Notes: generated from the letters alone by a model not told the origin. A DNA stretch of 64,000 bases from Escherichia coli O127:H6 str. E2348/69 (GCF_000026545.1 NC_011601.1), one strand, 5' to 3'; shown: positions 23,684 through 57,128, counted from the first letter of the stretch. Program-made: numbers and translations.

Positions 23684-24241
23684 ATGTCTTATTCAGAAAT
23701 CGCCGCGTGTCTGGCATACGCGGTTTCCGTCTGGCTGGCTGCCAGAAACAATGTGCATACATGGTGGATCGGCATAATTGGCAGCATATTGTACGGCTGG
23801 GTTTTTTGGTCCGTGCAACTCTATGCCGACGTTACGCTCCAGTTATTCTTCATCGCGACCAGCATCACTGGCTGGATCCACTGGCTGAAAGGTCAGGGTG
23901 GCGACATCTTGCCGGTGCGCCGAACGCAAGCCTGTCACTTTTTCCTTTTGTTGCTCTGTGCTGTCGTCGTGGCAGGCGGTTACGGCTTTTTACTCCACAC
24001 CTTTACCAATGCCTGGGCACCCTGGCTGGATTCGTTGATTTTGACCTTTAGCGTTCTGGCACAATTCATGTTGATGGGAAGACGTATCGAAAACTGGTTC
24101 GTCTGGTTAGCGGTGAATACCTTGGCAGTGCCACTGTATATGACGCGCGGTTTAAACCTGACCGCTGGCTTATATTTCCTGTTCTGGATTAACGCCTGGC
24201 ATGGTTTGTATCAATGGCGCAAAGAGTTGCAAACATCATGA
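23684..24241 (+). CDS. PnuC-family nicotinamide riboside transporter-like membrane protein (185 aa)
   Basis: Small polytopic membrane protein with PnuC-like hydrophobic pattern; good RBS (GGGAGGG); stop overlaps the next gene start (ATGA); not pnuC proper. Confidence 0.7.
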   Translation: MSYSEIAACLAYAVSVWLAARNNVHTWWIGIIGSILYGWVFWSVQLYADVTLQLFFIATSITGWIHWLKGQGGDILPVRRTQACHFFLLLLCAVVVAGGYGFLLHTFTNAWAPWLDSLILTFSVLAQFMLMGRRIENWFVWLAVNTLAVPLYMTRGLNLTAGLYFLFWINAWHGLYQWRKELQTS

Positions 24242-25242
24242 AGCCTTTTGCAACGGGCCTGGTGGTTGGTAAATTCGCGCCTTTGCATTGTGGTCATGAA
24301 AAGTTGATCAATACCGCACTGGCGCAATGTGAAGAACTGTTCATCATCAGTTATTCCGTGCCGGAAATGCCTGACTGTGAACCTGAAAAGCGCCTGACGT
24401 GGCTGCAAGTGCGCTTCCCGCAAGCGACGATTTTGGTACTGACGCCAGAGCTTGTTGCGCGTTATAACTTACCTGCCATACCGCATAACGATGCCGATGC
24501 CGACATCCACCGTCATTATGTGGCGACGCTGTGCCTGCAGATATTACGCTGTCGTCCACATGCTGTATTTACTGCAGAAGACTATGGCGATGGCTTTGCT
24601 AACGTGCTGGCGCGGCGTTTTGCCCAACCCGTTGAACACGTTCGAATGGCGCGCCCAGTTGGCGATGAAGCGCCTTCGGGAACGCTTATTCGTTCCGATG
24701 TTCACCGCTATCGCTACATGTTGGCGAATGATGTTTATTACAGTTTCGTTCGCCGTATCTGTCTGCTTGGTGGCGAATCTACCGGTAAAAGCACGCTTTC
24801 AAAAGCGCTGGCGGATGGGCTTGATACGGTGTATGTCGCTGAATTTGGCCGCGACTATTGGGAAGAAAAAAACGGAATCTTAACCGCGGATGATTTGTTG
24901 CATATCGCCTGCGAACAGGTACGCCGGGAACAACAAGCAGAAGCTAATCACTATCTTATATGTGACACGTCGCCACTCACGACCTTGTTCTATGCCCTTG
25001 ATCAATATGGTCATGCTCCGCAAGAACTTCATCAACTGGCGGAGCGGGAATACTCTCTGGTGGTGCTTTGCGGCGCAGAATTTCCCTTCGTGCAGGATGG
25101 CACCCGGCAAGGAGAGGTATTTCGCGCACGGCAACAGGTGTGGTATGAACAGGAATTGTCGCGCAGGAACATTCCTTATCTTTCGGTTTCGGGGCCACTG
25201 CAAGAGCGAGTGGAGCAAATTCTTCGCCAACTTCCCGACTGA
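24214..25242 (+). CDS. NadR-like bifunctional NMN adenylyltransferase / ribosylnicotinamide kinase lacking the N-terminal HTH domain (start at 24214 or 24238)
   Basis: Nucleotidyltransferase motif GKFAPLHCGH (compare NadR GKFYPLHTGH) and P-loop GGESTGKST (NadR kinase domain Walker A); 333-342 aa versus about 410 for full NadR. Confidence 0.8.
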   Translation: MAQRVANIMKPFATGLVVGKFAPLHCGHEKLINTALAQCEELFIISYSVPEMPDCEPEKRLTWLQVRFPQATILVLTPELVARYNLPAIPHNDADADIHRHYVATLCLQILRCRPHAVFTAEDYGDGFANVLARRFAQPVEHVRMARPVGDEAPSGTLIRSDVHRYRYMLANDVYYSFVRRICLLGGESTGKSTLSKALADGLDTVYVAEFGRDYWEEKNGILTADDLLHIACEQVRREQQAEANHYLICDTSPLTTLFYALDQYGHAPQELHQLAEREYSLVVLCGAEFPFVQDGTRQGEVFRARQQVWYEQELSRRNIPYLSVSGPLQERVEQILRQLPD

Positions 25243-25323: not shown

Positions 25324-26517
25324 GTGTTTCAAAAAGTTGACGCCTACGCTGGCGACCCGATTCTTACGCTTATGGAGCGTTTTAAAGAAGATCCCCGCAG
25401 CGACAAAGTGAATTTAAGTATCGGTCTGTACTACAACGAAGACGGAATTATTCCACAACTGAAAGCCGTGGCGGATGCGGAAGCGCGCCTGAATGCGCAG
25501 CCTCATGGTGCTTCGCTTTATTTACCGATGGAAGGGCTTAACAGCTATCGCCATGCCATTGCGCCGCTGCTGTTTGGTGCGGACCATCCGGTACTGCAAC
25601 AACAGCGCGTAGCAACCATTCAAACCCTTGGCGGCTCAGGGGCATTGAAAGTGGGCGCAGATTTCCTGAAACGCTACTTCCCGGAATCAGGCGTCTGGGT
25701 CAGCGATCCTACCTGGGAAAACCACGTAGCAATATTCGCCGGGGCTGGATTCGAAGTGAGCACTTACCCCTGGTATGACGAAGCGACTAACGGCGTGCGC
25801 TTTAATGACCTGTTGGCGACGCTGAAAACATTACCTGCCCGCAGTATTGTGTTGCTGCATCCATGTTGCCACAACCCAACGGGTGCCGATCTCACTAATG
25901 ACCAGTGGGATTCCGTGATTGAAATTCTCAAAGCCCGTGAGCTTATCCCATTTCTTGATATTGCCTATCAAGGATTTGGTGCCGGTATGGAAGAGGATGC
26001 CTACGCCATTCGCGCCATTGCCAGCGCTGGATTACCCGCTCTGGTGAGCAATTCGTTCTCGAAAATTTTCTCCCTTTACGGCGAGCGCGTCGGCGGACTT
26101 TCTGTTCTGTGTGAAGATGCCGAAGCCGCAGGCCGCGTACTGGGGCAATTGAAAGCAACCGTTCGCCGCAACTACTCCAGCCCGCCGAATTTTGGTGCGC
26201 AGGTGGTGGCTGCGGTGCTGAATGACGAGGCATTGAAAGCCAGCTGGCTGGCGGAAGTAGAAGAGATGCGAACTCGCATTCTGGCAATGCGTCAGGAACT
26301 GGTGAAGGTATTGAGCACAGAGATGCCAGAGCGCAATTTCGATTATCTGCTTAATCAGCGCGGCATGTTCAGTTATACCGGTTTAAGAACCGCCCAGGTT
26401 GACCGACTACGTGAAGAATTTGGTGTCTATCTCATCGCCAGCGGTCGCATGTGTGTCGCCGGGCTTAACGCGCAAAATGTGCATCGCGTGGCAAAGGCGT
26501 TTGCTGCGGTGATGTGA
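25324..26517 (+). CDS. tyrB: aromatic-amino-acid aminotransferase TyrB (397 aa, GTG start)
   Basis: Translation from (V)[13 protein letters not shown] matches TyrB. Confidence 0.9.
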
Positions 26518-26527
26518 TTTTAATCAA

Positions 26528-26547
26528 CAGGCGGATCTCTCCGCCTG
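26528..26547 (+). terminator. hairpin after tyrB (CAGGCGGATCTCTCCGCCTG)
   Basis: Perfect 8-bp stem read directly; weak T tract. Confidence 0.45.
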
Positions 26548-26647
26548 TTCCTGACTCCAGCCATCCCCTACTATTCTGTCCCTTTTTTCGCCCACTTTTA
26601 CATCATCTATTTTCTATAAGTTTTTGAAAATTAGTGTTTTTAACTGT

Positions 26648-26663
26648 TGGTACGGATTGTGCA
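26648..26663 (+). promoter_or_regulatory. sigma-54 (-24/-12) promoter-like element upstream of the island E1 gene
   Basis: TGGTACGGATTGTGCA: TGG..AC at -24 and TGCA at -12 with canonical spacing, about 35 bp upstream of the E1 ATG. Confidence 0.5.
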
Positions 26664-26698
26664 GTAATGCGGCTGTCTATGACCATCAGGAGAAAAAC

Positions 26699-29443
26699 AT
26701 GGAGAACATGACCTCGCCCGGCACGCTGCTTAGTGGAGATAACGCGACCTGGCTTGAAGAGTACTACCAGACCTGGTTGCGTACGCCGGAAAAACTCCCG
26801 GAAGACTGGCGGCGTTTTTTTCTTTCACCTGAACTGACTGTCCAAAGCGTATCCGGTGATAACAACGTCAGCGGTGCGACGTTAAAAAAACAGGCTGCGG
26901 TAATACAACTGATCAATGCCTGGCGCACGCAGGGGCATCTGCGCGCAAAGCTTGATCCACTTGGTTTGAATCCCCCGGCTGACGTTCCCTCCCTCCAGCC
27001 TGGTTTTTGGGGATTAAGCGAAGAAGACTTGTTGCAGGAATTTAGCGTCACCTTTGGCGCACACACCACGCAAATGCCACTTAAGCAACTGCTTAACCTG
27101 CTAGAGCAAGCCTGGGCCGGTAGCCAGGCTTATGAACTTGCTCATCTGGAAAATCGTGAAGAAATCAACTGGTTGTTATCACGGATTGAGAGCAGCAATG
27201 CGCCACAAGCAGATGTACAAACCTGTATTGCTCGTTTTGAAAAACTGATGGCGGCAGAGACGTTAGAGCGTTATCTGCATACCCGTTATGTTGGGCAGAA
27301 ACGGTTTTCTCTGGAAGGGGGCGAAAGTGCAATCCCGGCGCTCGATACGCTGACAAAACGCCTGCGTGCGCAAGGTGTGGAGGAAATGGTCATTGGCATG
27401 GCGCACCGGGGAAGACTTAATGTTCTGGTTAATCTGTTGAATAAAGACCCGGCACAGCTTTTTGCTGAGTTTGAAGGCAAGCAGACGATCGGCAGTGGTT
27501 CAGGCGATGTGAAATACCACATGGGGTATTCCAGCAATCTGGAAACACCTGCCGGTTCGCTGCATGTGGCGCTGGCGTATAACCCCTCACATCTGGAGAT
27601 CGTGAATCCGGTGGTGCTGGGCCAGGTGCGAGCCAGGCAGGAACGCCGTGGTGAGGATGGTCAGGCAAAAGTGGTGGGCGTACTTATTCATGGGGATTCC
27701 GCGTTGGGCGGCCTCGGCGTCAACCAAACCACGTTTAACTTATCGCAGACTCAGGGCTACGGCACTGGCGGTACGCTACATCTGGTGATTAACAATCAGA
27801 TTGGCTTCACCACTTCCCGCTTGCAGGATATGCGTTCTTCACGGTACTGCACCGATATTGCCAAAATGGTAGCGGCCCCAATTATCCACGTTAATGGCGA
27901 TGACGTTGACGCTGTTTGCCAGGTAATGGAACTGGCGTGCGAATGGCGAGACACCTTCCGGCGCGACATCATCATCGATATTTGCTGCTTCCGTAAGCAC
28001 GGACACAACGAAAGCGATGAGCCACGTCTTACCCAGCCACAAATGTATCAGGCAGTGGATGCTCACCCTGGTACGCTCGCCCGTTATGGTGAATCTCTTG
28101 CCCGCCGCGGCCTGTTAACTCAGGCGCAACAAGATGAGATGACGGCACGCTATCGCGACTGGCTGGATAGCTGCCAGAAACGTGAACCGCAGCCTCTCAA
28201 ACCTGCAATTCACTCTTTTAGCGCTAACTGGTATGGGTTGACCAACCCTCACTGGAGCGCCCCGGTATCTACGGCATTGCCTCGGCAAAAGCTGGCAGCG
28301 TATGGTGAAATCATTTCTACACTGCCACCCGATGTGGTCGCACATCCTACCATTAAACGGCAACTGGCGTTACGCCAGGATATGGCCGCAGGTACTCAGC
28401 CAATAGACTGGGGAATGGCTGAAATGCTGGCCTATGCATCGCTTGTGGATGCGGGTGTTGGTGTGCGTCTTTCTGGTGAAGACTCAGGGCGTGGCACGTT
28501 CAGTCATCGCCATGCAGTGGTACATCATCAAACTGAAGCCCGTCGTTATCTGCCGTTACAGCATATCCGCGCTGGTCAGGCATCTTTCGATGTTTATGAT
28601 TCGGTGCTTAATGAAGAAGCGCTCTTAGCCTTTGAATATGGCTATTCAACGTCTGCGCCTCAGCAACTGGTTATTTGGGAAGCGCAGTTTGGTGACTTTG
28701 CCAACGGCGCTCAGGTTGCTATTGACCAGTTTATCTCGTCTGGCGAAACCAAGTGGGATCGCTATAGCGGTTTAACCATTCTTCTGCCGCATGGCTATGA
28801 CGGACAAGGGCCGGAGCACTCTTCTGCGCGTCCTGAGCGCTGGCTGCAACTGTGCGCAGAAAACAACATGCAGGTGGTGATGCCCAGTGAGTCAGCACAA
28901 ATGTTCCATTTGCTGCGCGGTCAGGCATTACGCCCAATGCGCAAACCGTTAGTGATAATGATGAGTAAGCGTTTACTTCGGTTTAAAGGCGCGATGAGCG
29001 AGCTTTCTGAATTTACTGATGGCGCTTATAAACCGGTAATCACCGATCCGCAATTGCATCAGCCCCAGAAAGTTAAGCGCGTTATTTTGTGTAGCGGCCA
29101 GGTCTATTACGACGTACTGGAAGCCCGTAAGCAGCGTGAGTGTGAAGATGAGGTAGCGATTGTTCGCCTGGAGCAACTCTACCCGTTCCCGGTCGCAGAA
29201 CTGAATGATGTTCTGGCGAGTTGGCCGAACTGCTGCGAATGGATTTGGTTGCAGGAAGAGCCAGAAAACCAGGGCGCGTGGCGGCAGATTCGTCATGAGC
29301 TGGCGGCACTGAAAATTAACACTCCTTACTGGCAGTATGCAGGCCGCCCGGCAGCGGCAGCTCCGGCGACGGGGTATGGGCGTGTACATAAACAACAAAT
29401 CGACGAATTTCTTGCTGCTGCGTTTGCAGATATTCAGCCATGA
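26699..29443 (+). CDS. 2-oxoglutarate dehydrogenase E1 component paralogue (SucA-like, 914 aa)
   Basis: Collinear similarity to SucA along the whole length (e.g. MAHRGRLNVLVN, GDVKYHMG, EAQFGDFANGAQV, LPHGYDGQGPEHSSAR); start moved to ATG 26699 downstream of the promoter motif and preceded by AGGAG. Confidence 0.9.
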   Translation: MENMTSPGTLLSGDNATWLEEYYQTWLRTPEKLPEDWRRFFLSPELTVQSVSGDNNVSGATLKKQAAVIQLINAWRTQGHLRAKLDPLGLNPPADVPSLQPGFWGLSEEDLLQEFSVTFGAHTTQMPLKQLLNLLEQAWAGSQAYELAHLENREEINWLLSRIESSNAPQADVQTCIARFEKLMAAETLERYLHTRYVGQKRFSLEGGESAIPALDTLTKRLRAQGVEEMVIGMAHRGRLNVLVNLLNKDPAQLFAEFEGKQTIGSGSGDVKYHMGYSSNLETPAGSLHVALAYNPSHLEIVNPVVLGQVRARQERRGEDGQAKVVGVLIHGDSALGGLGVNQTTFNLSQTQGYGTGGTLHLVINNQIGFTTSRLQDMRSSRYCTDIAKMVAAPIIHVNGDDVDAVCQVMELACEWRDTFRRDIIIDICCFRKHGHNESDEPRLTQPQMYQAVDAHPGTLARYGESLARRGLLTQAQQDEMTARYRDWLDSCQKREPQPLKPAIHSFSANWYGLTNPHWSAPVSTALPRQKLAAYGEIISTLPPDVVAHPTIKRQLALRQDMAAGTQPIDWGMAEMLAYASLVDAGVGVRLSGEDSGRGTFSHRHAVVHHQTEARRYLPLQHIRAGQASFDVYDSVLNEEALLAFEYGYSTSAPQQLVIWEAQFGDFANGAQVAIDQFISSGETKWDRYSGLTILLPHGYDGQGPEHSSARPERWLQLCAENNMQVVMPSESAQMFHLLRGQALRPMRKPLVIMMSKRLLRFKGAMSELSEFTDGAYKPVITDPQLHQPQKVKRVILCSGQVYYDVLEARKQRECEDEVAIVRLEQLYPFPVAELNDVLASWPNCCEWIWLQEEPENQGAWRQIRHELAALKINTPYWQYAGRPAAAAPATGYGRVHKQQIDEFLAAAFADIQP

Positions 29444-29475
29444 AAGGCGCACAAAAATAATAAGGAGAACATTTT

Positions 29476-30630
29476 ATGATCGAAATTACTGTCCCTGTAT
29501 TACCGGAATCTGTCACGGAAGGCACGCTGACAACCTGGTGTAAACAAGAAGGCGAGCACGTAAAACGCGATGATGTGATTGCCGAGCTGGAAACCGATAA
29601 AGTCATTCTGGAAATACCGGCCCCGCACGATGGCGTGTTAAGCAATATTATCGTCAGCGAAGGTAGCACGGTCACGTCCGCGCAACTGTTGGCGCATCTT
29701 AAGCCGCAAGCTGTCATAGAAGAAACCGTCACACCAGTCACCGAAACCCTGACGATGCCTTCCGCACGGCTGGAGGCACAGCGTAGTGGTGTCGAACTTG
29801 CTGACGTTGCGGGGAGCGGGAGAAATGGACGTATCCTGAAAGAGGATGTGCAGCGCGTTACTCCTGCACCAGCCATTCAGCCTGAACGGGTGGCGGAGAT
29901 CGCGCCAGCTAAACCCTTGACACCGGGTGCTCGTCAGGAACGTCGTGAGCCGATGTCGCGCTTACGTCAGCGAATTGCTGAGCGTCTGCTGGCTTCCCAA
30001 CAAAATAACGCCATTCTTACCACATTCAACGAAGTAAACATGCAGAGCGTGATGGATTTACGCGCCCGCTGGAAAGATCGTTTTGCCGAGAAGCACGGCG
30101 TGAAGCTGGGCTTTATGTCCTTCTTTGTTAAGGCCGTTACCCGGGCGCTGGAGCGCTTCCCTGTAGTGAATGCCAGCGTTGATGGTAACGAGATTATCTG
30201 GCGTGATTATTGCGATATCGGCATTGCAGTGAGCAGCAACCGCGGCCTGGTAGTGCCTGTGTTACGCAATGCGCAATCACTCTCTTTGGTGGAAATTGAA
30301 CGGCAAATTGCCGAATACGCCACACAGGCTCGCAATGGCAAATTGCCGCTGGAGGCGTTACAGGGCGGCACGTTCTCTATCACCAACGGCGGTACTTTTG
30401 GTTCGATGATGTCAACGCCAATCATTAACCCGCCGCAGTCGGCCATTCTTGGGATGCATGCCATCACGCCGCGCCCGGTCGCAGAAAACGGCCAGGTTGT
30501 TATTCGTCCCATGATGTACCTTGCTCTCAGCTATGACCATCGCATTATTGATGGGCAGGAAGCCGTTCAGACGCTGGTGGCAATACGCGAGCTACTGGAG
30601 TCACCGGAACAACTGTTGCTGGATCTTTAA
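29476..30630 (+). CDS. dihydrolipoamide succinyltransferase E2 paralogue (SucB-like, 384 aa)
   Basis: Lipoyl domain with ELETDKV lipoyl-lysine motif; catalytic domain with [12 protein letters not shown]. Confidence 0.9.
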
Positions 30631-30641
30631 GGAGAGCGCCA

Positions 30642-32060
30642 ATGAGTACAATTTTCGATGTGGCAGTTATGGGTGGTGGGCCAGGTGGTTACGTAGCGGC
30701 ACTGCGGGCTGCGCAGAATGGGCTTTCCGTAGTATGTATTGATGATGGTGTAAATGCTCAGGGCGAACCTTCGCCGGGCGGTACGTGCCTCAATGTCGGC
30801 TGTATTCCGTCAAAATCGTTGCTGCAATCTTCCGAACTGTACGCGCAAGTGCAGCATGAGGCGAGCATTCATGGCGTTAATGTTGACGGCGTATCTTTCA
30901 ATGCAGCTGCGATGATTCAACGTAAAGACGCCATAGTAAGCCGCCTGACAATGGGCATCGGTTTGCTGTTTAAGAAAAATAAAGTGAAGCACCTGTGCGG
31001 CCTCGCAACGTTAGAACATGCTCAGGATGAGATTTGGCAATTACGTGTAAACGATCAACAAATCCGCGCCCGTAATGTGGTGATTGCAACAGGTTCTCAG
31101 CCGCGTCAACTGCCTGGCGTTACCATTGATAATCAGCAAATTCTCGATAATCGCGGCGCCCTGGCGTTAACCGCTGTGCCGCCGCGTCTCGGTGTGATCG
31201 GCGCTGGCGTGATTGGCCTTGAACTGGGGTCTGTGTGGAATCGGGTCGGTTCAGACGTCACGTTGCTGGAGATGGCGCCAACGTTCTTGCCTGCACTGGA
31301 AGCTCGCCTGTCGAACGAAGTCCGTAAAGCAATGATTGCCAGTGGGATGAAAATGCAACTGGCAGTAGAGATTGAGGCTATTGAACAACGGGATGACGGT
31401 GTGCATGTGCGCTGGCGGCAGGGTGAGAAGCGAGAAGAAAGCCGCTTCGATAAATTAATTCTTGCCATTGGACGTGTACCGCGACTTTCTGGTGTCGATC
31501 TCGTGCAACTCGGTCTTGAAGCCGATAACCGTGGCGGTATTGCCGTCGATAACTTATGCCGTACCGGGAAAGCCGGGCTGTGGGCAATTGGTGATGTCGT
31601 GCGAGGGCCGATGCTGGCGCATAAAGCGATGGCTGAAGGTGTGGTGGTTGCTGATCAAATTGCCGGACTGGCGGTAGAGCCGATTAATTTTGCGCTGATC
31701 CCTTCGGTGATTTACACCCAACCGGAAGTTGCGTGGGTAGGGGAAAACGAGGCCTCACTGAAAGCCGCTGGCAGAGTCTTTAACAAAGGAAATTCTCTGT
31801 TTGCCGGTAACGGTCGCGCCTTAGCATTAGGCCAGGAAGGTGGGCGTTGCACGTTATACAGCGATAAACACACTGACCGCGTACTTGGCGGAGCGATTGT
31901 TGGCCCGCAGGCATCGGAGCTGATCAATGAAATTGCGCTGGCGATGACTTTTAGCGCCTCTGGCGAGGATATTGTCTGTGCGATCCATGCGCATCCGACA
32001 TTAAGCGAAGTCATCCACGAAGCAGCAATGGCCTTGAATAATAAAGCATTACACGGATAA
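30642..32060 (+). CDS. dihydrolipoamide dehydrogenase E3 paralogue (Lpd-like, 472 aa)
   Basis: FAD-binding GGGPGG, redox-active disulfide motif GTCLNVGCIPSK, C-terminal HAHPTLSE. Confidence 0.9.
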   Translation: MSTIFDVAVMGGGPGGYVAALRAAQNGLSVVCIDDGVNAQGEPSPGGTCLNVGCIPSKSLLQSSELYAQVQHEASIHGVNVDGVSFNAAAMIQRKDAIVSRLTMGIGLLFKKNKVKHLCGLATLEHAQDEIWQLRVNDQQIRARNVVIATGSQPRQLPGVTIDNQQILDNRGALALTAVPPRLGVIGAGVIGLELGSVWNRVGSDVTLLEMAPTFLPALEARLSNEVRKAMIASGMKMQLAVEIEAIEQRDDGVHVRWRQGEKREESRFDKLILAIGRVPRLSGVDLVQLGLEADNRGGIAVDNLCRTGKAGLWAIGDVVRGPMLAHKAMAEGVVVADQIAGLAVEPINFALIPSVIYTQPEVAWVGENEASLKAAGRVFNKGNSLFAGNGRALALGQEGGRCTLYSDKHTDRVLGGAIVGPQASELINEIALAMTFSASGEDIVCAIHAHPTLSEVIHEAAMALNNKALHG

Positions 32061-32081
32061 CACATACCACTGAGGGAATAT

Positions 32082-33251
32082 ATGAATTTACATGAGTATC
32101 AGGCCAAATCGTTACTGGCTGGCATGGGGATGCCGTGTCCAAAAGAGATAGCCATCCAACAGATTTCGCAACTGGCAGATGCCTGGCAACATATTGCTTG
32201 CCCGAGTAAAGGCGCGGTACTTAAAGCGCAGGTACATGCTGGTGGGCGCGGTAAAGCTGGCGGCGTAAAAGTGCTTAAGCAGCTGCCGGAAGCACAGGCT
32301 TTTGTACAGCAAATGTTGGGATCGCAACTGGTGACTTATCAGACCGGGCCAGAAGGACAGTATGTCAGCAGTATTTTACTGTGCGAAAACATTTATCCGG
32401 TACGCCAGGAACTCTATTTTGGCATGGTGGTGGATCGTGAAAGCCAGCGGGTCACGTTTATTGTCAGCCCGGAAGGTGGTGTGGAAATTGAAAAAGTCGC
32501 CCATGAGACACCGGAGAAAATCAGCAGTGTCAGCATTGATCCACTGACAGGCGTGCAGCCTTGCCATATCCGAGAAATGTTTGCTGTTCTGCAACTGGAA
32601 CACGGACTATTTGCTGCCTTTAGTCGCCTGGTTAATCAGGCGTGGAAAGCCTTTAACGAACTGGATTTTGCCCTGCTGGAAATTAACCCTCTGGTGTTGC
32701 GGGAAACGGGCGAATTTATGTGTGCAGACGCGAAAGTATCGCTGGATGATAACGCGCTGTATCGTCACCCGGAACTCCAGGTGCTACGTGATGAAACCCA
32801 GGAAGATCCACGCGAAAGCCAGGCAGCGAAGCTTGATCTTAATTATGTCTCGCTGGACGGAAATATCGGCTGCATGGTCAATGGTGCAGGGCTGGCTATG
32901 GCAACCATGGACATCATCAAGCTATACGGTGAACAACCCGCAAACTTCCTGGATGTTGGCGGTGGCGCAACCCAGGAGCGCGTCAGTGAAGCCTTTCGGC
33001 TGATTGTTTCCGACGGCAAAGTGAAAGCCATTCTGGTTAATATTTTTGGTGGGATTGTCCGTTGCGACATGATCGCCAGAGCCATTATTCATGCTCTGAA
33101 TGAGGCCCGTATCACCCTGCCTGTCGTGGTGCGTCTCTCCGGTAATAACGCTGCCGAAGGGCAGCGGTTACTGGCAGAAAGTGGCCTGACGGTGGAAGCC
33201 GTCAATTCTCTGGATGATGCCGCTAAACGCATCATTGCGTTACTGAATTAA
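32082..33251 (+). CDS. succinyl-CoA synthetase beta subunit paralogue (SucC-like, 389 aa)
   Basis: ATP-grasp N-terminus MNLHEYQAKSLL, collinear with SucC. Confidence 0.9.
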   Translation: MNLHEYQAKSLLAGMGMPCPKEIAIQQISQLADAWQHIACPSKGAVLKAQVHAGGRGKAGGVKVLKQLPEAQAFVQQMLGSQLVTYQTGPEGQYVSSILLCENIYPVRQELYFGMVVDRESQRVTFIVSPEGGVEIEKVAHETPEKISSVSIDPLTGVQPCHIREMFAVLQLEHGLFAAFSRLVNQAWKAFNELDFALLEINPLVLRETGEFMCADAKVSLDDNALYRHPELQVLRDETQEDPRESQAAKLDLNYVSLDGNIGCMVNGAGLAMATMDIIKLYGEQPANFLDVGGGATQERVSEAFRLIVSDGKVKAILVNIFGGIVRCDMIARAIIHALNEARITLPVVVRLSGNNAAEGQRLLAESGLTVEAVNSLDDAAKRIIALLN

Positions 33252-33263
33252 CAGGAGGTTAAG

Positions 33264-34136
33264 ATGAGCGTTTTGATCAACAAACACACGCGGGTACTGG
33301 TGCAGGGCATTACCGGCAAAAACGGCACATTTCATACAGAGCAGGCTATTGCGTATGGCACGCAGATTGTGGGTGGAGTGACGCCAGGTAAGGGCGGGCA
33401 ACGGCATCTGGATCGCCCGGTTTTTGATTCAATGAAAGAAGCGATGCGACAAACTGAGGCTGATGCCAGCGTGATTTATGTGCCTGCACCGTTTGTGCTG
33501 GATTCTGTTGTTGAGGCTATTGAAGCTGGCGTCAAATTGGTTGTGGTGATCACTGAAGGTGTACCGACACTGGATATGGTGAAAGTTCGTCGGCTGCTTG
33601 ACTGCCACCCGGATGTGCGGCTGATTGGGCCAAACTGCCCAGGAGTTATCACGCCGGGTGAGTGCAAAATCGGGATTATGCCTGGTGAAATCCACCGCCC
33701 AGGGCGTATTGGGATTGTTTCCCGCTCCGGTACATTAACCTACGAAGCTGTAGCGCAAACCACGGCGCTGGGACTTGGGCAATCCACCTGTATTGGTATT
33801 GGCGGCGATCCGGTTCCGGGGACTAACTTTATTGATGCGCTGCGTTTATTCGAAAATGATCCGCAAACAGACGCGGTAATTATGATCGGTGAAATTGGTG
33901 GTAATGCGGAAGAACGGGCCGCGGAATTTATTCGTCATGAAATGAATAAACCGGTCGTAGGTTATATTGCCGGTGTTACTGCACCAAAAGGAAAACGCAT
34001 GGGACACGCCGGAGCCATTATTTCTGGCGGTAGCGGCAGTGCGGAGGATAAATTCCGGGCGTTCGATAAAGCAGGCATGGCATGGACACGAAATCCAGCA
34101 TTACTTGGCGAAACGTTATGGAATGTTATTAAGTAA
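33264..34136 (+). CDS. succinyl-CoA synthetase alpha subunit paralogue (SucD-like, 290 aa)
   Basis: CoA-binding N-terminus, catalytic His region (GHAGAII) conserved. Confidence 0.9.
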
Positions 34137-34154
34137 TCCATAAATGAATATCAA

Positions 34155-34178
34155 GGGAGCATATCGCTCCCTTTTTTT
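34155..34178 (+). terminator. rho-independent terminator after the SucD-like gene
   Basis: GGGAGC-ATATC-GCTCCC stem-loop followed by T7. Confidence 0.7.
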
Positions 34179-34291
34179 ATCTGTGTGGTAAGGGAATCAT
34201 CTTTTAATAACTGTGCGGAAAACCGCGCATAAAATAAAAAGGATAAATAGCTAACTCATTAAATAACAAAGCGTTATTAAAAAATTAAAGA

Positions 34292-34307
34292 TGGCATAGC
34301 TCCTGCA
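34292..34307 (+). promoter_or_regulatory. second sigma-54 (-24/-12) promoter-like element, upstream of the transporter gene
   Basis: TGGCATAGCTCCTGCA: TGGCA at -24 and TGCA at -12 with canonical spacing, about 40 bp upstream of ATG 34348. Confidence 0.5.
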
Positions 34308-34347
34308 ATAGCCAGGCAGGTTTTTTATTTTTCACAATGAGGTGAAT

Positions 34348-35847
34348 ATGTCATCAATATCCCATGGCGCACCACAAAAGCGTCGAATTATCCCTAATCC
34401 CGGCCTGTGGTTGGCGATCATTGCCGGAATTATTATTACCCTTCTGCCACTGGGCGATACCTTGCCCGTCGCCGGACAAAATATGATCGCCATTCTGGTG
34501 TTTGCCATTATTGTCTGGATCAGCGAAGCGATGGATTACACCGCCAGTGCAATTGTTATTTCCGCACTGATTATCTTTATGGTTGGTTTTGCCCCGGATA
34601 TGAATCACCCGGACACGATCCTTGGCACCGCGAAAGCGCTGAAAATGACTCTGTCGGGTTTTTCTAATTCTGCTCTGGCGCTGGTGGCAGCAGCAATGTT
34701 TATCGCGGCGGCAATGACCATTACCGGGCTGGATAAACGCATTGCGCTGTTTACTATGTCGAAAATAGGTGCCAGCAGCCGCAGCATTATTATCGGTGCC
34801 ATTGTGGTGACCATCGTCCTGAGCCTGGTCGTACCCAGTGCCACTGCCCGTACGGCTTGCGTGGTGCCGATTATGATGGGGGTCATTGCGGCATTTAAGG
34901 TGGATAAACATTCACGTTTAGCGGCGTCAATGATGATTGTTATCGCCCAGGCGACCAGTATCTGGAAAGTTGGTATTCAAACTTCGGCGGCGCAAAACCT
35001 GCTTTCTATCGGTTTTATCAATAAAACTTTCGGCGCCGGGCATTCTGTCAGCTGGCTTGACTGGCTGTTAGCGGGCGCGCCCTGGAGCCTCACCATGTCG
35101 GTGATCCTCTATTTCCTCGCACGTAAATTGTTGCCGCCAGAAACGGAAGCTGTTGAAGGGGGGAGCGAGGCCATTAAAAAAGCACTCGCAGAGTTAGGGC
35201 CAACCACCGGTAAAGAAAAACGCTTGATCGGTATTTCGCTGTTGTTACTGCTCTTTTGGTCTACTGGCGGAAAATTGCACAGTATTGATACCACCTCTGT
35301 CACCCTTGCCGGACTGGCGATTATGTTGCTGCCAGGCATCGGTGTAATGAGCTGGAAAGAGGTCGAAAAACGTGTGCAGTGGGGCACGTTGCTTATGTTT
35401 GGTATTGGTATCAGCCTGGGGTCCACGTTGCTTGATACACAGGCAGCTTCATGGATGGCGAACTATGTGGTGAAAGGTTTTGGTCTCGATGGCTTGCCAT
35501 CATTAGCCATCTTCGCGATTCTCGCCGCTTTCTTGATAATCATTCACCTGGGGTTTGCCAGTGCCACTGCGCTAACTGCCGCATTGCTGCCCATCCTGAT
35601 TAGCCTGTTAAGCAGTCTGCCGCCAGAACTCGGCGTTAACCCGGTCGGCATGACCATTCTGCTCGCCTTCAGTGTCAGTTTTGGCTTCATCCTGCCGATT
35701 AACGCGCCACAAAATATGGTGTGTATGGGTACGGATACCTTCACGCCACGCCAGTTTACCCGTGTGGGACTGTACCTGACGGTGATCGGCTACCTGTTGT
35801 TGCTACTGTTTGCCGCCACCTGGTGGAAAATTTTAGGTCTAATGTGA
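34348..35847 (+). CDS. DASS/CitT-family dicarboxylate (anion) transporter (about 499 aa)
   Basis: Polytopic membrane protein with two-repeat architecture typical of the divalent anion:Na+ symporter / CitT family; start at ATG 34348 after RBS GAGGTG. Confidence 0.8.
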   Translation: MSSISHGAPQKRRIIPNPGLWLAIIAGIIITLLPLGDTLPVAGQNMIAILVFAIIVWISEAMDYTASAIVISALIIFMVGFAPDMNHPDTILGTAKALKMTLSGFSNSALALVAAAMFIAAAMTITGLDKRIALFTMSKIGASSRSIIIGAIVVTIVLSLVVPSATARTACVVPIMMGVIAAFKVDKHSRLAASMMIVIAQATSIWKVGIQTSAAQNLLSIGFINKTFGAGHSVSWLDWLLAGAPWSLTMSVILYFLARKLLPPETEAVEGGSEAIKKALAELGPTTGKEKRLIGISLLLLLFWSTGGKLHSIDTTSVTLAGLAIMLLPGIGVMSWKEVEKRVQWGTLLMFGIGISLGSTLLDTQAASWMANYVVKGFGLDGLPSLAIFAILAAFLIIIHLGFASATALTAALLPILISLLSSLPPELGVNPVGMTILLAFSVSFGFILPINAPQNMVCMGTDTFTPRQFTRVGLYLTVIGYLLLLLFAATWWKILGLM

Positions 35848-35858
35848 GGAAACCAACG

Positions 35859-36932
35859 ATGTCATTACAAATTGCTGTTGAAAAAGTGCGTTGGTTAGCT
35901 GCCGGGCTGCTGGAACTTAATGGCTGTGATGCCGATATCGCTCAGGATGTGGCGGAACATATGATTGAAGCGGAACGTTATGGTTTTGCCAGCCACGGCG
36001 TCACGCTGCTACCGAAATATCTGGAAAATATCGCTCGTGGCGATGTAACCGCGAATGCCCGCCCGGAATGCTTAACAAGTGAAGGTAATTTACAACGTTT
36101 TCATGCCCACAATGGCTTTGGTCAACACGCCGGAAAAGTGGCGGTAAATGCTGCCATCGAACAAACAAAACACCGCGGTTTTTGCCTGTTAACGTTGTGC
36201 CATGCGCATCATTTAGGGCGTATGGGGCATTACGGGCAAATGGTTGCTGATCAAGGCCTGGCGATGCTGGCCATGAGTAACGTCACCGGGCGTCCGGCAC
36301 TGGTCGCCCCGTGGGGCGGTGCGGAACCGCGTATGACCACTAACCCTTTCTGCTTTGCCTGGCCGTTCAGTGATGGGCGTCCGCCGATTCTGGTTGATTT
36401 TGCCACCAGTAGCATGGCGCTAAATAAAGCACGGGTAATGTCGTCCACCGGGAAGCAGGCCGCGCCGGGACAATTGATCGATGCACAGGGGAATCCAAGC
36501 AATGATCCTGGGGTGTTATTCAGCAATCCTCCAGGGGCGTTACTGCCATTTGGTGAGCATAAAGGATTTGGCCTGGCACTGATGATTGAAATGATGGCGG
36601 GGATCTTATCTGGTGGTGACACGATCGCCGAAGATCATCAGACGGATGGATCTGCGCATAATCATCTTTTTGCGTTGATTATCGATCCTGATCAATTCAC
36701 CGATCTGGCAGGGGAGAAAGGGCAGTTCTTTGCGGATTATCTGTTAGCTACGCAGCCTCAACCTGGCGGCAATCCGGTGATTTACCCCGGTATGCCAGAA
36801 GCTGCCAACCGGGAACGCAATGCGAAGATGATTACGATCCCGGTATCATTCTGGTCCTGGGTAGTTGAACATTACGCCCGCAAAGGTATCGATTTGGGGT
36901 TACATCCTCAGGAATCAGCATTAGCTGGATGA
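35859..36932 (+). CDS. Ldh_2-family (malate / L-lactate / sulfolactate type) NAD(P)-dependent 2-hydroxyacid dehydrogenase (357 aa)
   Basis: Family-typical segments (GxxSHG region GFASHG, EHKGFGLAL); start placed at ATG 35859 after RBS GAGGAAA, rejecting the upstream extension that overlaps the transporter. Confidence 0.8.
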   Translation: MSLQIAVEKVRWLAAGLLELNGCDADIAQDVAEHMIEAERYGFASHGVTLLPKYLENIARGDVTANARPECLTSEGNLQRFHAHNGFGQHAGKVAVNAAIEQTKHRGFCLLTLCHAHHLGRMGHYGQMVADQGLAMLAMSNVTGRPALVAPWGGAEPRMTTNPFCFAWPFSDGRPPILVDFATSSMALNKARVMSSTGKQAAPGQLIDAQGNPSNDPGVLFSNPPGALLPFGEHKGFGLALMIEMMAGILSGGDTIAEDHQTDGSAHNHLFALIIDPDQFTDLAGEKGQFFADYLLATQPQPGGNPVIYPGMPEAANRERNAKMITIPVSFWSWVVEHYARKGIDLGLHPQESALAG

Positions 36933-38279
36933 TTCTGGTCGATAAACTTGCGGTTGAATCTGATGTTTGTTGAGTTTGTCATATAAAGTCTTGCGCGGCA
37001 GCTGTAATAGCCGCGCTGTCAAACTGACCTGGCCTTCCGTTTGTCGCAGCATATCTTCGATTAACTTTTTCTCGAAAGCATCAATGCAGGCGGTAAGGCC
37101 ACTCTCTTCTTGCTGAGTCATTGGTACTGGCTGGTGGTGGGTCAGTAAACCGAGAACAAAACGCTCTGCATTGTGTTTAAGTTCACGTACATTGCCAGGC
37201 CAACTTTGTGACTGCAACCAGGCCAGTAACATGGGAGAAATATCAGGCAGAGGACGATTATATTTTTGTGCCGCCTGACTGGCGAACCAGTAAAACAGTT
37301 CAGGGATATCTTCTCGTCGTTGGCGTAGAGGTGGAATATTCAGGCTAACCACATTCAGACGATAATAGAGATCGAGACGAAACAGATGTTCTTCGCTGCG
37401 ACGCAGTAAATCTTCCTTGGTCGCTGCAATAACACGGCAATTCACCGGAATTAATTGATTGGCACCTAATCGTTCAATGGTTCTTTCCTGCAATACACGT
37501 AGCAGTTTTACCTGCATTCCTGATGGCATTCCCTCTATTTCATCGAGAAATAACGTACCACCATTTGCATGTTCAATTTTTCCAATACGCTTTTTAACCG
37601 CACCGGTAAATGCGCCCGCCTCATGACCAAATATTTCGCTTTCAAACAACGTTTCTGGTAAGCCTGCACAGTTTAAGGCAACAAACTGCCCCTGACGGCG
37701 GGTACTCCAGTGATGCAGCATTCTGGCGACGACTTCTTTACCACAACCTGTTTCACCATAAATAAGGACATCGGCACCGGTATCTGCGACATTAAGGATC
37801 ATTTTACGCAGTTGTTGCATCTGCGGACTACGACCAATCAGCACCGGGCCATTTTCCTGTTGCAGATTCGCCAGTAATTGCTGATTTTCTAAAACCAATC
37901 GCCGTTTTTCTACCGCTCTGGCAATAATACTCAATAATTTATCTGAGCTACTTGGTTTCTCAATGAAATCGAATGCACCATTACGCATGGCATCCACCGC
38001 CATTTCCACGTCACCGTGTCCGGTAATTAAAATAACCGGAATTTTGCTATCCATTTCGTTGATGTAACTGAGGAGCTCTAGTCCTGATATTCCAGGTAAC
38101 CTGACATCGGTCAGTATAATAATGTTGGCCTGACTTTGAATAAGGGGAATACTGTGTTCTGCATCGCAACAGGAAATAACACGATAACCAGCCAGCGTGA
38201 GCGTTTGTTCACAGGCAAAACGTACATCGTCACTATCCTCAATATAAACTATAGTAATTTCACTGGATTTATTATTCAT
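36921..38279 (-). CDS. kguR: sigma-54-dependent two-component response regulator (NtrC/DctD family, 452 aa)
   Basis: Receiver domain with phospho-acceptor Asp (IILTDVRLPG), AAA+ domain with Walker A GETGCGKE and the sigma-54 contact motif GAFTGA, C-terminal Fis-type HTH; gene name from memory of the UPEC KguS/KguR system. Confidence 0.85.
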   Translation of the reverse strand: MNNKSSEITIVYIEDSDDVRFACEQTLTLAGYRVISCCDAEHSIPLIQSQANIIILTDVRLPGISGLELLSYINEMDSKIPVILITGHGDVEMAVDAMRNGAFDFIEKPSSSDKLLSIIARAVEKRRLVLENQQLLANLQQENGPVLIGRSPQMQQLRKMILNVADTGADVLIYGETGCGKEVVARMLHHWSTRRQGQFVALNCAGLPETLFESEIFGHEAGAFTGAVKKRIGKIEHANGGTLFLDEIEGMPSGMQVKLLRVLQERTIERLGANQLIPVNCRVIAATKEDLLRRSEEHLFRLDLYYRLNVVSLNIPPLRQRREDIPELFYWFASQAAQKYNRPLPDISPMLLAWLQSQSWPGNVRELKHNAERFVLGLLTHHQPVPMTQQEESGLTACIDAFEKKLIEDMLRQTEGQVSLTARLLQLPRKTLYDKLNKHQIQPQVYRPESSS

Positions 38280-40092: not shown

Positions 40093-40272
40093 TCATCATC
40101 CATTGAATGCATTTATATTTATCATCAGTATATTCCCTGAACAATGTTTGCGAGAACCAAAAGAGTGCCATTGTGTGAATGTGTAAGCAGAATAACCGTG
40201 GCAATGTGTGGTTTATCGCACAGGTATTCCAAATGTGATCATGCTCTTTTTATGTGACAAATCCGCAGATAA

Positions 40273-56877: not shown

Positions 56878-57128
56878 GCTTTTGTTCTCCTTGTAGGATG
56901 TTAATAATATGTGGCATAAGCGTTAAATGTAGGGGTATTGGCAGTTTTGTTTAGTATTTGGGCGACAGATCACGCAAAAGTAGAATTGTGCAAATAAACG
57001 GCAGGGTAATTTTTGAAGGTCAGCAACAAAAGTTGATTAATTCTTTGAAGAACATGCAGTTATGCATGCTGTTGAAAAAGAGGAAGATACTGACTAACTC
57101 TAAAGTGGTATTTTACATGCACTTACAA

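Follow-up and report, generated by a model that had tools for sequence, protein, structure and literature searches.

Two probable KguR-activated σ54 promoters in the α-ketoglutarate utilisation island of Escherichia coli E2348/69

Each of the two co-oriented operons in the KguS/KguR α-ketoglutarate island of E. coli E2348/69 is preceded by a -24/-12 element, here called P1 and P2, and we consider it very probable (about 0.9) that these are the KguR-activated, σ54-dependent promoters of the island. The window analysed is a stretch of 64,000 nucleotides, which matches strain E2348/69 at 100%, and all positions are counted from its first letter. For P2, the assignment is backed by published experiments in strain CFT073; for P1, comparative evidence together with the published KguR dependence of the operon points to dependence on σ54.

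With this island, some E. coli strains are able to burn host α-ketoglutarate anaerobically, and it adds to fitness in the urinary tract. The locus has been described in CFT073 (Cai et al. 2013, PMC3694859; Cai et al. 2017, PMC5318444; a 2021 paper, PMC8716947), and the two-operon structure, the control of both operons by KguR, and the σ54 dependence, transcription start and palindrome of c5038 are already known. Our additions are modest, and leave the accepted picture of island regulation unchanged: the first promoter is pinned down as probably σ54-type and better candidate KguR sites are proposed for it, the promoter architecture is found to be kept from E. coli to Vibrio, and kguSR falls outside the σ54 model. 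A sequence-only reading of this DNA had described two σ54 promoter-like motifs that divide the island into separately initiated units; the observation is confirmed, and its interpretation is supported, nearly every element being backed by published CFT073 experiments.

The island and the junction between its operons

The genes between tyrB and aphA are annotated as the equivalent of CFT073 c5032-c5041, and this region is the published KguS/KguR α-ketoglutarate utilisation island. Genes, gene order and the tyrB-aphA insertion site are alike in the two strains, while the hosts differ, being the EPEC prototype E2348/69 here and a UPEC strain in the CFT073 work. Between the two strains, the P1 region has a single mismatch over 292 nt. 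No difference is found in the P2 core, taken from -92 up to the ATG, so that the published P2 data carry over to the window.

The first operon consists of E1-E2-Lpd-SucC-SucD (c5032-c5037 in CFT073), and the second encodes a DASS transporter and an Ldh-family oxidoreductase (c5038-c5039). By RT-PCR in CFT073, c5032-5037 and c5038-5039 are distinct operons, and no c5037-c5038 co-transcript was found (PMC3694859). The published RT-PCR thus upholds the earlier division into a metabolic and a transport/dehydrogenase unit, but the island has three units and not two, the third being kguSR on the opposite strand.

The two operons are separated by a terminator:

34153-34180, plus strand: intrinsic terminator ending the first operon, an 8-9 bp GC-rich stem followed by T7

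The stem-loop (34153-34173) starts 17 nt past the sucD stop codon and is followed directly by the T-tract (34174-34180). Its fold of -18.4 kcal/mol has a z-score of -4.15, and none of 200 shuffled sequences was as stable. A strong rho-independent terminator, which had been proposed at 34155-34178, is therefore borne out by the hairpin, the T7 tract and the z-score, and its function is supported by the published RT-PCR (PMC3694859). An equivalent hairpin with T6 is present at the operon junction in Citrobacter; in K. indica and Pectobacterium, a simple scan detected no terminator between the operons.

The -24/-12 elements

26648-26663, plus strand: P1, probable σ54 -24/-12 promoter of the E1 operon, TGGTACGGATTGTGCA (sequence, matrix, conservation)
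34292-34307, plus strand: P2, σ54 -24/-12 promoter of the transporter operon, TGGCATAGCTCCTGCA (sequence, published RACE, rpoN and EMSA data, matrix, conservation)

P1 carries GG at 26649-50 and GC at 26661-62, and P2 carries GG at 34293-94 and GC at 34305-06, in both cases with the canonical 10-nt gap between and in a context resembling TGGCAC-N5-TTGCW. The P1 motif ends 35 nt ahead of the E1 ATG at 26699, and the P2 motif 40 nt ahead of the ATG of the DASS transporter at 34348. For both motifs, the position given by the sequence-only reading was exact.

The start of c5038 in CFT073 was determined by 5'-RACE as an A located 30 nt before the ATG (PMC5318444). It maps to window position 34318, which is 12 nt past C34306, and places the GC at -13/-12 and the GG at -25/-24. 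Induction of c5038-lacZ is abolished in a ΔrpoN strain and restored by plasmid-borne rpoN, and purified RpoN shifts the c5038 promoter in EMSA (PMC5318444). As these CFT073 experiments were carried out on the same sequence, P2 is an experimentally proven σ54 promoter.

P1 departs from the consensus at two places (TGGTAC instead of TGGCAC, and GTGCA instead of TTGCA). Its transcription start is predicted at about 26674, which would give a leader of 25 nt. In the literature, we found neither a description of the c5032/E1 promoter as σ54-type nor its rpoN dependence or start site.

For scoring the elements, an independent σ54 matrix was derived from 42 intergenic sites of K-12 ChIP-seq (PMC4591121). 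P1 scores 12.8 (29th percentile of real sites, rank 8 of 127,968 positions) and P2 scores 15.5 (57th percentile, rank 4). The motif count by itself is not significant: TGGYAYN6TGCW matches three times in the window where 1.32 matches are expected, three being reached in 13 of 100 shuffles, and the bare GG-N10-GC occurs at chance frequency. Significance comes from position and conservation. Promoter-compatible positions (intergenic, sense, 15-150 nt from a start codon) make up 3.3% of the total, and only three of the top eight matrix matches belong to this class, namely P1, P2 and the known pspG σ54 promoter, which is the top match in the window. This enrichment has a binomial P of 1.8e-3, or of 0.02 when pspG is left out because it was a training site. 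The five intragenic sites that score equal to or above P1 are probably non-functional.

Six lineages were compared (E. coli, Citrobacter, K. indica, Entomohabitans, Pectobacterium and Vibrio), and in all of them each operon has exactly one strong σ54 match, 49-68 nt ahead of the start codon. Upstream of E1, P1 is the sole strong match, with scores of 12.8-18.1 across the six and a runner-up of at most 5.5. TGG and TGC are invariant in the six-genus alignments, whereas the flanks are just 40-45% identical; in pairwise comparison, the specified positions of P1 are 0.84 identical, as against 0.40 for its flanks, and the values for P2 are 0.95 and 0.45. Among 1,044 E. coli genomes carrying the regions, the alleles that diverge most in the sample also retain both motifs intact. 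In Vibrio, the operons are split, one on each side of kguRS, and each retains its own σ54 promoter and upstream sites. The P1/P2 motifs track the presence of kguRS: where kguRS is missing from the neighbourhood, DASS homologues of ~60% identity lack a σ54 motif as well (best score 5.8).

Upstream sites and alternative explanations

34212-34229, no strand assigned: proximal KguR site of P2, a palindrome, TGTGCGGAAAACCGCGCA, centred at -97.5
34182-34199, no strand assigned: weaker distal KguR-like site of P2, TGTGTGGTAAGGGAATCA, centred at -127.5, 30 bp upstream of the proximal site; putative binding site
26577-26594, no strand assigned: candidate proximal KguR site of P1, TGTCCCTTTTTTCGCCCA, centred at -88.5
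26546-26563, no strand assigned: weak candidate distal KguR-like site of P1, TGTTCCTGACTCCAGCCA, centred at -119.5, 31 bp upstream of the proximal one
26617-26629, minus strand: putative IHF-like site of P1, TTTCAAAAACTTA, with one mismatch to WATCAANNNNTTR, centred at -51
34264-34276, plus strand: putative IHF-like site of P2, TAACAAAGCGTTA, with one mismatch, centred at -48

The layouts upstream of P1 and P2 are alike, with tandem KguR-like sites followed by an IHF-like site and then the -24/-12 element, which is a further point in favour of P1 being a σ54 promoter. The pattern TGTGYG-N6-CRCRCA has only two exact matches in the window, the P2 proximal site and a site upstream of kguS, and binding of KguR in EMSA is gone once the palindrome is removed (PMC8716947). 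Across the six lineages, the centre of the P2 proximal site varies only between -96.5 and -99.5. The distal site is the second-best matrix match, at -127.5 to -129.5, in five of the six, while in Pectobacterium it comes third and its score is negative; its TGTG.GG block is conserved in alignment A4. Both P2 sites fall within the roughly 80-150 bp upstream where activator sites of σ54 promoters are expected.

Upstream of P1, the proximal candidate is the top match to the KguR matrix, whose training sites were those of P2 and kguS only, with a score of 6.7 versus a shuffled 95th percentile of 4.3. It is found at -88.5 in E. coli, Citrobacter, K. indica and Pectobacterium, as a conserved block of alignment A3. 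The distal candidate, also an A3 block, is kept in position in four lineages, with low scores (-5.4 in E. coli, 3.9 in K. indica). Both P1 candidates are degenerate, the proximal one being only just past the shuffled 95th percentile.

Each of the six lineages has the IHF-like site of P1, centred between -47 and -51 and with no more than one mismatch, in a region of 74% A+T. At P2, the site at -48 has 0-1 mismatch in three lineages and, as read by eye, two mismatches in the other three, and its A.AACAA....TTA columns are conserved in A4. Matches of this kind are expected to be frequent in DNA of 70-85% A+T, and IHF may play a role at P1 and P2.

We favour a process in which σ54-RNA polymerase would wait as a closed complex at each -24/-12 element, while KguS would sense α-ketoglutarate and phosphorylate KguR. 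KguR would then assemble on tandem sites ~30 bp apart, which at P2 lie near -97/-127 and at P1 are probably those near -88/-119. Through the A/T-rich spacer, with its IHF-like site near -50, the activator would be able to loop to the polymerase, and the GAFTGA loops of KguR, with ATP hydrolysis, would open the promoter. The P1 transcript, from about 26674, would encode a second 2-oxoglutarate dehydrogenase (E1, E2, Lpd) and succinyl-CoA synthetase and stop at the intrinsic terminator at 34153-34180, and the transcript starting at 34318 would encode the DASS α-ketoglutarate transporter and the Ldh-family oxidoreductase.

It is very unlikely that P1 is a chance match and that the E1 operon is transcribed from a KguR-activated σ70-type promoter or by read-through from tyrB. 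The 2013 prediction of the c5032 promoter did come from BProm, a σ70 tool (PMC3694859), P1 is imperfect, seven more positions in the window equal or exceed its score, and kguSR seems to be activated by KguR though it has no recognisable σ54 promoter; read-through might be allowed to some extent by the hairpin after tyrB (26526-26549), which is without a T-tract. However, the -24/-12 element of P1 is kept in six genera at a fixed start-codon distance where other intergenic DNA has diverged, and it is conserved also in lineages without tyrB upstream. No σ70-like promoter was called on the plus strand of either intergenic region (26518-26698 for P1), KguR is a GAFTGA activator, and c5032-lacZ is at background in a ΔkguR strain, contrary to constitutive read-through (PMC3694859). 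Even less probable, to the point of being hardly credible, is one long unit transcribed from P1, with P2 reduced to a minor internal booster and the hairpin (34153-34173) to a weak attenuator. The genes from E1 to Ldh lie on one shared strand with small gaps, and no clear junction terminator was found in K. indica and Pectobacterium, both of which would suit such a unit. It is contradicted by the lack of a c5037-c5038 co-transcript in RT-PCR (PMC3694859), by the hairpin with T7, which is a strong intrinsic terminator, and by the mapped start and the total loss of c5038-lacZ in ΔrpoN and ΔkguR strains, which show P2 to be the working promoter; in Vibrio, moreover, kguRS lies between the units, which have a promoter each.

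As to the KguR sites of the E1 operon, our comparative data point elsewhere than the published CFT073 site, which lies in the 3' end of tyrB at about -208. In its favour, σ54 activators are able to act from more than 200 bp. Only island-bearing strains have its right half, CGCGCA, in place of which K-12 reads TACGGCA. The site (TGTGTG-N13-CGCGCA, 26450-26474) was proposed by the authors, and KguR shifts a probe containing it (PMC3694859). That probe, extending from -272 to +32, also spans the -88 and -119 blocks of P1, though, and the N13 spacing contrasts with N6 in both EMSA-validated sites. The tyrB site is not conserved in Citrobacter and K. indica, it is impossible where the island is not beside tyrB, and the 2021 paper gives it only as a match in the transaminase CDS (PMC8716947). 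While we regard the tyrB site as an unlikely activator site, with a modest chance of being correct, the true KguR sites of the E1 operon may be the conserved -88/-119 blocks.

KguR, KguS and the kguSR unit

36921-38279, minus strand: kguR, NtrC-family σ54 activator (bEBP; motifs, NCBIfam, accession)
38272-40092, minus strand: kguS, sensor histidine kinase (annotation and histidine-kinase family matches)
40205-40222, no strand assigned: KguR palindrome upstream of kguS, belonging to the third unit, TGTGCGATAAACCACACA (exact pattern match, published EMSA)

KguR (WP_001060859.1, identical in CFT073) has GAFTGA at residues 222-227 and the Walker A motif GETGCGK at 175. It matches the NCBIfam NtrC, AtoC, GlrR and ZraR models, yet stays under the curated cut-off of every named NCBIfam equivalog, including that of the NtrC model in spite of an E-value of 3e-113, and is a distinct subfamily. 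KguS is the α-ketoglutarate sensor (PMC3694859). Deletion of kguR (c5040) abolishes expression of both c5032-lacZ and c5038-lacZ, the former down to background, and KguR shifts both promoter fragments, c5032 and c5038, in EMSA (PMC3694859). The published fusions and EMSA, together with the GAFTGA motif, support the earlier suggestion that both units are controlled by the adjacent NtrC-family regulator.

In the enteric NtrB/NtrC-glnAp2 system, a phosphorylated receiver-AAA+-HTH activator on tandem enhancers opens the σ54 closed complex; the Kgu system shares this textbook mechanism but responds to another signal, and KguR is under the NtrC model cut-off. Rhizobium DctB/DctD-dctA is a C4-dicarboxylate two-component system with a σ54 promoter activated from tandem upstream sites. 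DctBD and KguSR both combine a periplasmic-sensing kinase with an NtrC-family activator, with adjacent regulator genes, and in both systems a dicarboxylate transporter gene is driven from a -24/-12 promoter that has a pair of adjacent activator sites some 100 bp upstream. The Kgu system differs in its ligand (α-ketoglutarate, C5), in its transporter, which is DASS-family and not DctA, and in a regulon that adds a complete second 2-oxoglutarate dehydrogenase plus succinyl-CoA synthetase operon. P. aeruginosa MifS/MifR-PA5530, cited in PMC5318444, likewise places α-ketoglutarate uptake under a two-component σ54 activator and RpoN; it has a transporter of another family and no linked catabolic operon.

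The palindrome upstream of kguS is kept in E. albertii, Citrobacter and K. indica, and through it KguR exerts a strong, direct, positive autoregulation of kguSR (PMC8716947). A σ54 candidate upstream of kguS (40155-40170, minus strand) was rejected, as its -12 element is GT and not GC (score 6.6), its GG is GA in E. albertii, and Citrobacter and K. indica have no motif; a -24/-12 element upstream of kguS is conserved in no lineage examined. The one real loose end is kguSR, which is without a conserved σ54 motif though KguR reportedly activates it. What is conserved upstream of kguS is a tandem pair of KguR-like sites and a -10-like element, AATATACT. Tentatively, and with considerable doubt, KguR might activate kguSR from a non-σ54 promoter, so that one bEBP would serve two sigma factors within a single island. 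If kguSR transcription started near 40120, the KguR-like sites would be centred at about -60 and -93, as is typical of class I σ70 activators.

The KguS/KguR island and its published regulation

The island, which the window carries at 100% identity to the E. coli O127:H6 E2348/69 genome, is the KguS/KguR α-ketoglutarate utilisation island, known as c5032–c5041 in the uropathogenic strain CFT073, where the gene set matches and the KguR protein is identical. In K-12, both the island genes and the promoter DNA are absent, homology ending at the tyrB stop codon and restarting about 100 bp before aphA. The sequence-only reading had proposed that two σ54 promoter-like motifs, P1 before the E1 gene (c5032) and P2 before the transporter gene (c5038), divide the island into two separately initiated transcription units controlled by the adjacent NtrC-family regulator, with a rho-independent terminator between them. 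This observation is confirmed and its interpretation is supported. The features concerned are:

26648–26663: P1, TGGTACGGATTGTGCA, with 35 nt from the end of the motif to the ATG at 26699, which is preceded by AGGAG
26699–40092: island genes for 2-oxoglutarate dehydrogenase E1, E2 and Lpd, SucC, SucD, a DASS-family transporter and an Ldh-family oxidoreductase and, on the strand opposite to these metabolic genes, a σ54-dependent response regulator (KguR) and a histidine kinase (KguS)
34153–34180: inter-operon terminator, a hairpin (34153–34173) with a GC-rich stem of 8–9 bp, followed by seven T's
34292–34307: P2, TGGCATAGCTCCTGCA, with 40 nt from the end of the motif to the ATG at 34348
40093–40265, minus strand: kguSR promoter region, with a KguR palindrome (40205–40222) and a weaker site (40172–40189)

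Both motifs are present exactly as described, each with 10 nt between GG and GC. The terminator hairpin begins 17 nt beyond the fifth gene's stop codon, and its folding energy of −18.4 kcal/mol (z = −4.15) was not equalled by any of 200 shuffled sequences, so that a terminator between the two promoters is well founded. No plus-strand σ70-like promoter was called in the intergenic region of either P1 or P2.

The KguS/KguR system is already known, and much of this arrangement has been studied experimentally. By RT-PCR, c5032–5037 and c5038–5039 form two operons, both of which are induced by α-ketoglutarate under anaerobiosis; deletion of c5040 (kguR) abolishes expression of both the c5032-lacZ and the c5038-lacZ fusion, and both promoter fragments are shifted by KguR in EMSA (Cai et al. 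2013, PMC3694859). For c5038, a transcription start was assigned by 5'-RACE to an A located 30 nt before the start codon, a σ54 −24/−12 motif was pointed out, the promoter was shifted by purified RpoN, and induction was lost in a ΔrpoN strain and regained with plasmid-encoded rpoN, the mutant having been assayed on c5038-lacZ only (Cai et al. 2017, PMC5318444). An inverted repeat is required for KguR binding at the c5038 and kguS promoters, and kguSR is positively autoregulated by KguR, an activation reported as strong and direct (2021, PMC8716947).

Because the c5038 region of CFT073 shows no difference from the window between −92 and the ATG, the published start corresponds to position 34318, which places C34306 at −12 and GG at −25/−24, the textbook geometry. 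The start about 12 bp downstream of the motif and the requirement for rpoN, both anticipated for P2, are thus borne out, as is control by the adjacent regulator, which the kguR deletion and the EMSA data document for both promoters. Given these published data and the mapped start, we regard three elements as established: P2 itself, the division into two operons, and regulation by the neighbouring NtrC-family protein. The division into two separately initiated units agrees with the RT-PCR result but is incomplete, as the island has three transcription units, the third being kguSR.

A σ54 motif for c5032 is not described in PMC3694859, PMC5318444 or PMC8716947, and in the first of these the c5032 promoter was predicted with the σ70 program BProm. 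Neither the P1 nor the P2 16-mer turned up as a literal string in a literature search. As the remainder has been published, P1 is the sole part of the finding that needs new evidence, and what this analysis adds is confined to solid comparative data in favour of a σ54 promoter at P1, together with a tentative new placement of the sites where its activator binds.

P1 as a probable σ54 promoter

Simple pattern counts across the window proved uninformative as a significance test: GG-N10-GC is about as frequent as expected by chance, and a stricter pattern, TGGYAYN6TGCW, has three matches against 1.3 expected, a number reached by 13 of 100 shuffles. We therefore rely on a matrix built from 42 K-12 ChIP-seq sites that are intergenic and in sense orientation (Bonocora et al. 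2015, PMC4591121), which is independent of the island since K-12 lacks it. Scanning both strands (127,968 positions) gave the following scores at promoters:

19584–19600, plus strand: pspG promoter, score 18.5, rank 1 (training site)
34292–34307: P2, score 15.5, rank 4, 57th percentile of real sites
26648–26663: P1, score 12.8, rank 8, 29th percentile of real sites

The known pspG promoter (TTGGCATGATTCTTGTA, 35 nt upstream of the ATG of pspG) serves as a positive control, though it is among the sites on which the matrix was trained. Besides these three, the top eight matches comprise five that are all intragenic. Three of eight are thus intergenic, in sense orientation and 15–150 nt from a start codon, compared to 3.3% of all positions (binomial P = 1.8e-3, or 0.02 without pspG).

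Other candidates were rejected. The third match to the strict pattern, TGGTATTTTACATGCA (57106–57121, plus strand) in the acs–nrfA intergenic region, scores 9.3 and lies 147 nt before nrfA, with no gene for an activator in its vicinity; it is probably a chance match. A high-scoring site inside the island's E2 gene (CTGGCGTGATTATTGCG, 30198–30214, plus strand) reaches 16.7, and 14.8–17.5 in four other genera. The site follows from a conserved peptide, W-R/H-D-Y-C, the codons of which spell TGG...TGC; in Pectobacterium the Cys codon is TGT, so that the GC of the motif is broken, and on these grounds the E2 motif is probably a by-product of coding.

Further evidence comes from related islands. 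With the transporter protein as query against 100,044 species genomes, the gene cluster was recovered in several genera. Island gene order is kept, as far as the contigs reach, in E. albertii (where the contig stops before the transporter gene), three Citrobacter, K. indica, Entomohabitans and Pectobacterium. Upstream of E1, each lineage has one strong σ54 match (12.8–18.1, next-best at most 5.5), and the same holds upstream of the transporter gene (15.5–17.4, next-best at most 6.2); for both operons in all lineages, these matches lie 49–68 nt from the start codon. TGG, A and TGC do not vary in the MAFFT alignments made of the sequences upstream of each operon. At the specified positions of the motif, pairwise identity reaches 0.84 for P1 and 0.95 for P2, versus 0.40 and 0.45, respectively, in the other upstream columns.

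The rearranged order in Vibrio (transporter-Ldh, then kguRS, then E1-E2-Lpd) amounts to a natural experiment, in which each of the physically separated operons has retained its own −24/−12 element. In Azotobacter and Burkholderiales, transporter homologues with about 60% identity lack an adjoining kguRS, and no σ54 motif was found at them (best score 5.8). Within E. coli, both 16-mers are intact in the most divergent alleles sampled. The most divergent P1-region allele, that of strain GPEC1186, has seven substitutions within 11 nt (equivalent to 26664–26674), all of which lie downstream of the −12 element but before the predicted start and leave the −24/−12 motif unaltered. We consider this comparative support for P1 as a σ54 promoter to be solid.

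Activator sites and the kguSR promoter

The palindrome TGTGYG-N6-CRCRCA occurs exactly twice in the window, upstream of P2 (34212–34229) and upstream of kguS (40205–40222), and these are the two EMSA-validated KguR sites (PMC8716947). A matrix whose training set was confined to sites of P2 and kguS finds, upstream of P2, a strong site in each of the six lineages, centred between −96.5 and −99.5, and a weaker one 30 bp farther out (−127.5 to −129.5). Upstream of P1 there is no N6-type palindrome with up to two mismatches, only degenerate sites found with the matrix, the best being:

26577–26594: candidate proximal KguR site of P1, TGTCCCTTTTTTCGCCCA, centred at −88.5, the best matrix match in E. 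coli, Citrobacter and K. indica

In E. coli it scores 6.7, versus 4.3 for the 95th percentile of shuffled sequences. A second conserved block is centred at −119.5, 31 bp upstream, and conservation of both blocks is visible in the alignment. The two best matches in Pectobacterium are at these same two positions; Entomohabitans and Vibrio have higher-scoring KguR-like sites at −126 to −128.

A different KguR site has been published for c5032, TGTGTG-N13-CGCGCA (PMC3694859). It maps to 26450–26474, about −208, within the 3' end of the tyrB coding sequence, and its N13 spacing is unlike the N6 of the validated sites. Its right half falls within a short patch (~26465–26490) in which the sequence of island-bearing strains departs from that of K-12. 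Citrobacter and K. indica, which also carry the island, show no conservation of the site, and it is impossible where the island does not adjoin tyrB. The published EMSA does not discriminate, as the probe (−272 to +32) spans this site as well as the −88 and −119 blocks. Of the two, we favour these blocks as the more likely KguR sites of P1.

The DNA between the activator sites and either promoter is 68–85% A+T. An IHF consensus, WATCAANNNNTTR, is matched with 0–1 mismatch at −47 to −51 of P1 in all six lineages and at −48 of P2 in three; in the other three, a site with 2 mismatches was read by eye at the same place. These IHF-like sites are suggestive only.

KguR has a receiver domain, a Walker A motif (GETGCGK at 175) and the σ54-contacting GAFTGA loop (222–227); it matches the NtrC, AtoC, GlrR and ZraR models, under the curated cut-off of each. 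The circuit is of the standard two-component σ54 enhancer type. In the scheme we propose, KguR, phosphorylated by KguS when this kinase senses α-ketoglutarate, would assemble on tandem sites spaced by some three turns of the helix; a DNA bend would allow it to contact the σ54 closed complex at −24/−12, and ATP hydrolysis would open the promoter. The catabolic transcript would then run from P1 to the terminator at 34153–34180, and P2 gives the transcript of the transporter and oxidoreductase genes.

If the system hides anything out of the ordinary, it would be at the kguSR promoter. No conserved σ54 −24/−12 motif is present in 40093–40265; conserved upstream of kguS are the palindrome, an ATTCTGC...TTCACA block and a −10-like element, AATATACT (40135–40127). 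One σ54 candidate, TGGCACTCTTTTGGTT (40170–40155, minus strand), was rejected: its −12 element is GT, its matrix score is 6.6, E. albertii has GA in place of its GG, no motif exists there in Citrobacter or K. indica, and the abutting KguR-like site (40172–40189) leaves no room for looping. Thus KguR, although a GAFTGA σ54 activator, may activate kguSR independently of σ54.

Distribution and neighbourhood of the island

The system was stated to be absent from commensal and diarrhoeagenic E. coli (PMC3694859). Contrary to this, it is intact in the enteropathogenic prototype E2348/69 (26518–40265), and the searched promoter regions were found in Nissle 1917, ATCC 25922 and the type strain DSM 30083. 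Among complete E. coli genomes, 1,044 of 5,426 carry both promoter regions. In E. albertii, Citrobacter and K. indica, the island adjoins aphA, or is flanked by tyrB and aphA where the contig extends. Its distribution looks lineage-associated, not specific to uropathogenic strains.

An inter-operon terminator was also detected in Citrobacter by a simple scan for a hairpin plus T-run, which found none in K. indica and Pectobacterium. The sole match in Entomohabitans (9834–9860 of its locus, L008) is the distal KguR-like palindrome before the transporter promoter, TGTGCGCCAGACGGCGCA, which is followed by T8 and resembles an intrinsic terminator; from its sequence, it may be a KguR-like site and a terminator at once.

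An Rfam scan across the island gave no match. A further small insertion adjoins the island: between alr and tyrB (23684–25242), where K-12 has just a short intergenic gap, lie pnuC and a gene for an AAA-family ATPase. A σ54-like sequence, CTGGCACAATTCATGTT (24056–24072, score 15.6), lies within pnuC, 166 nt before the ATPase start. Elsewhere in the window, the lamB–malM interval holds an inserted ISEc13 (IS4-like) transposase (8135–9508), and qorA (20043–21031) is annotated as a frameshifted pseudogene.
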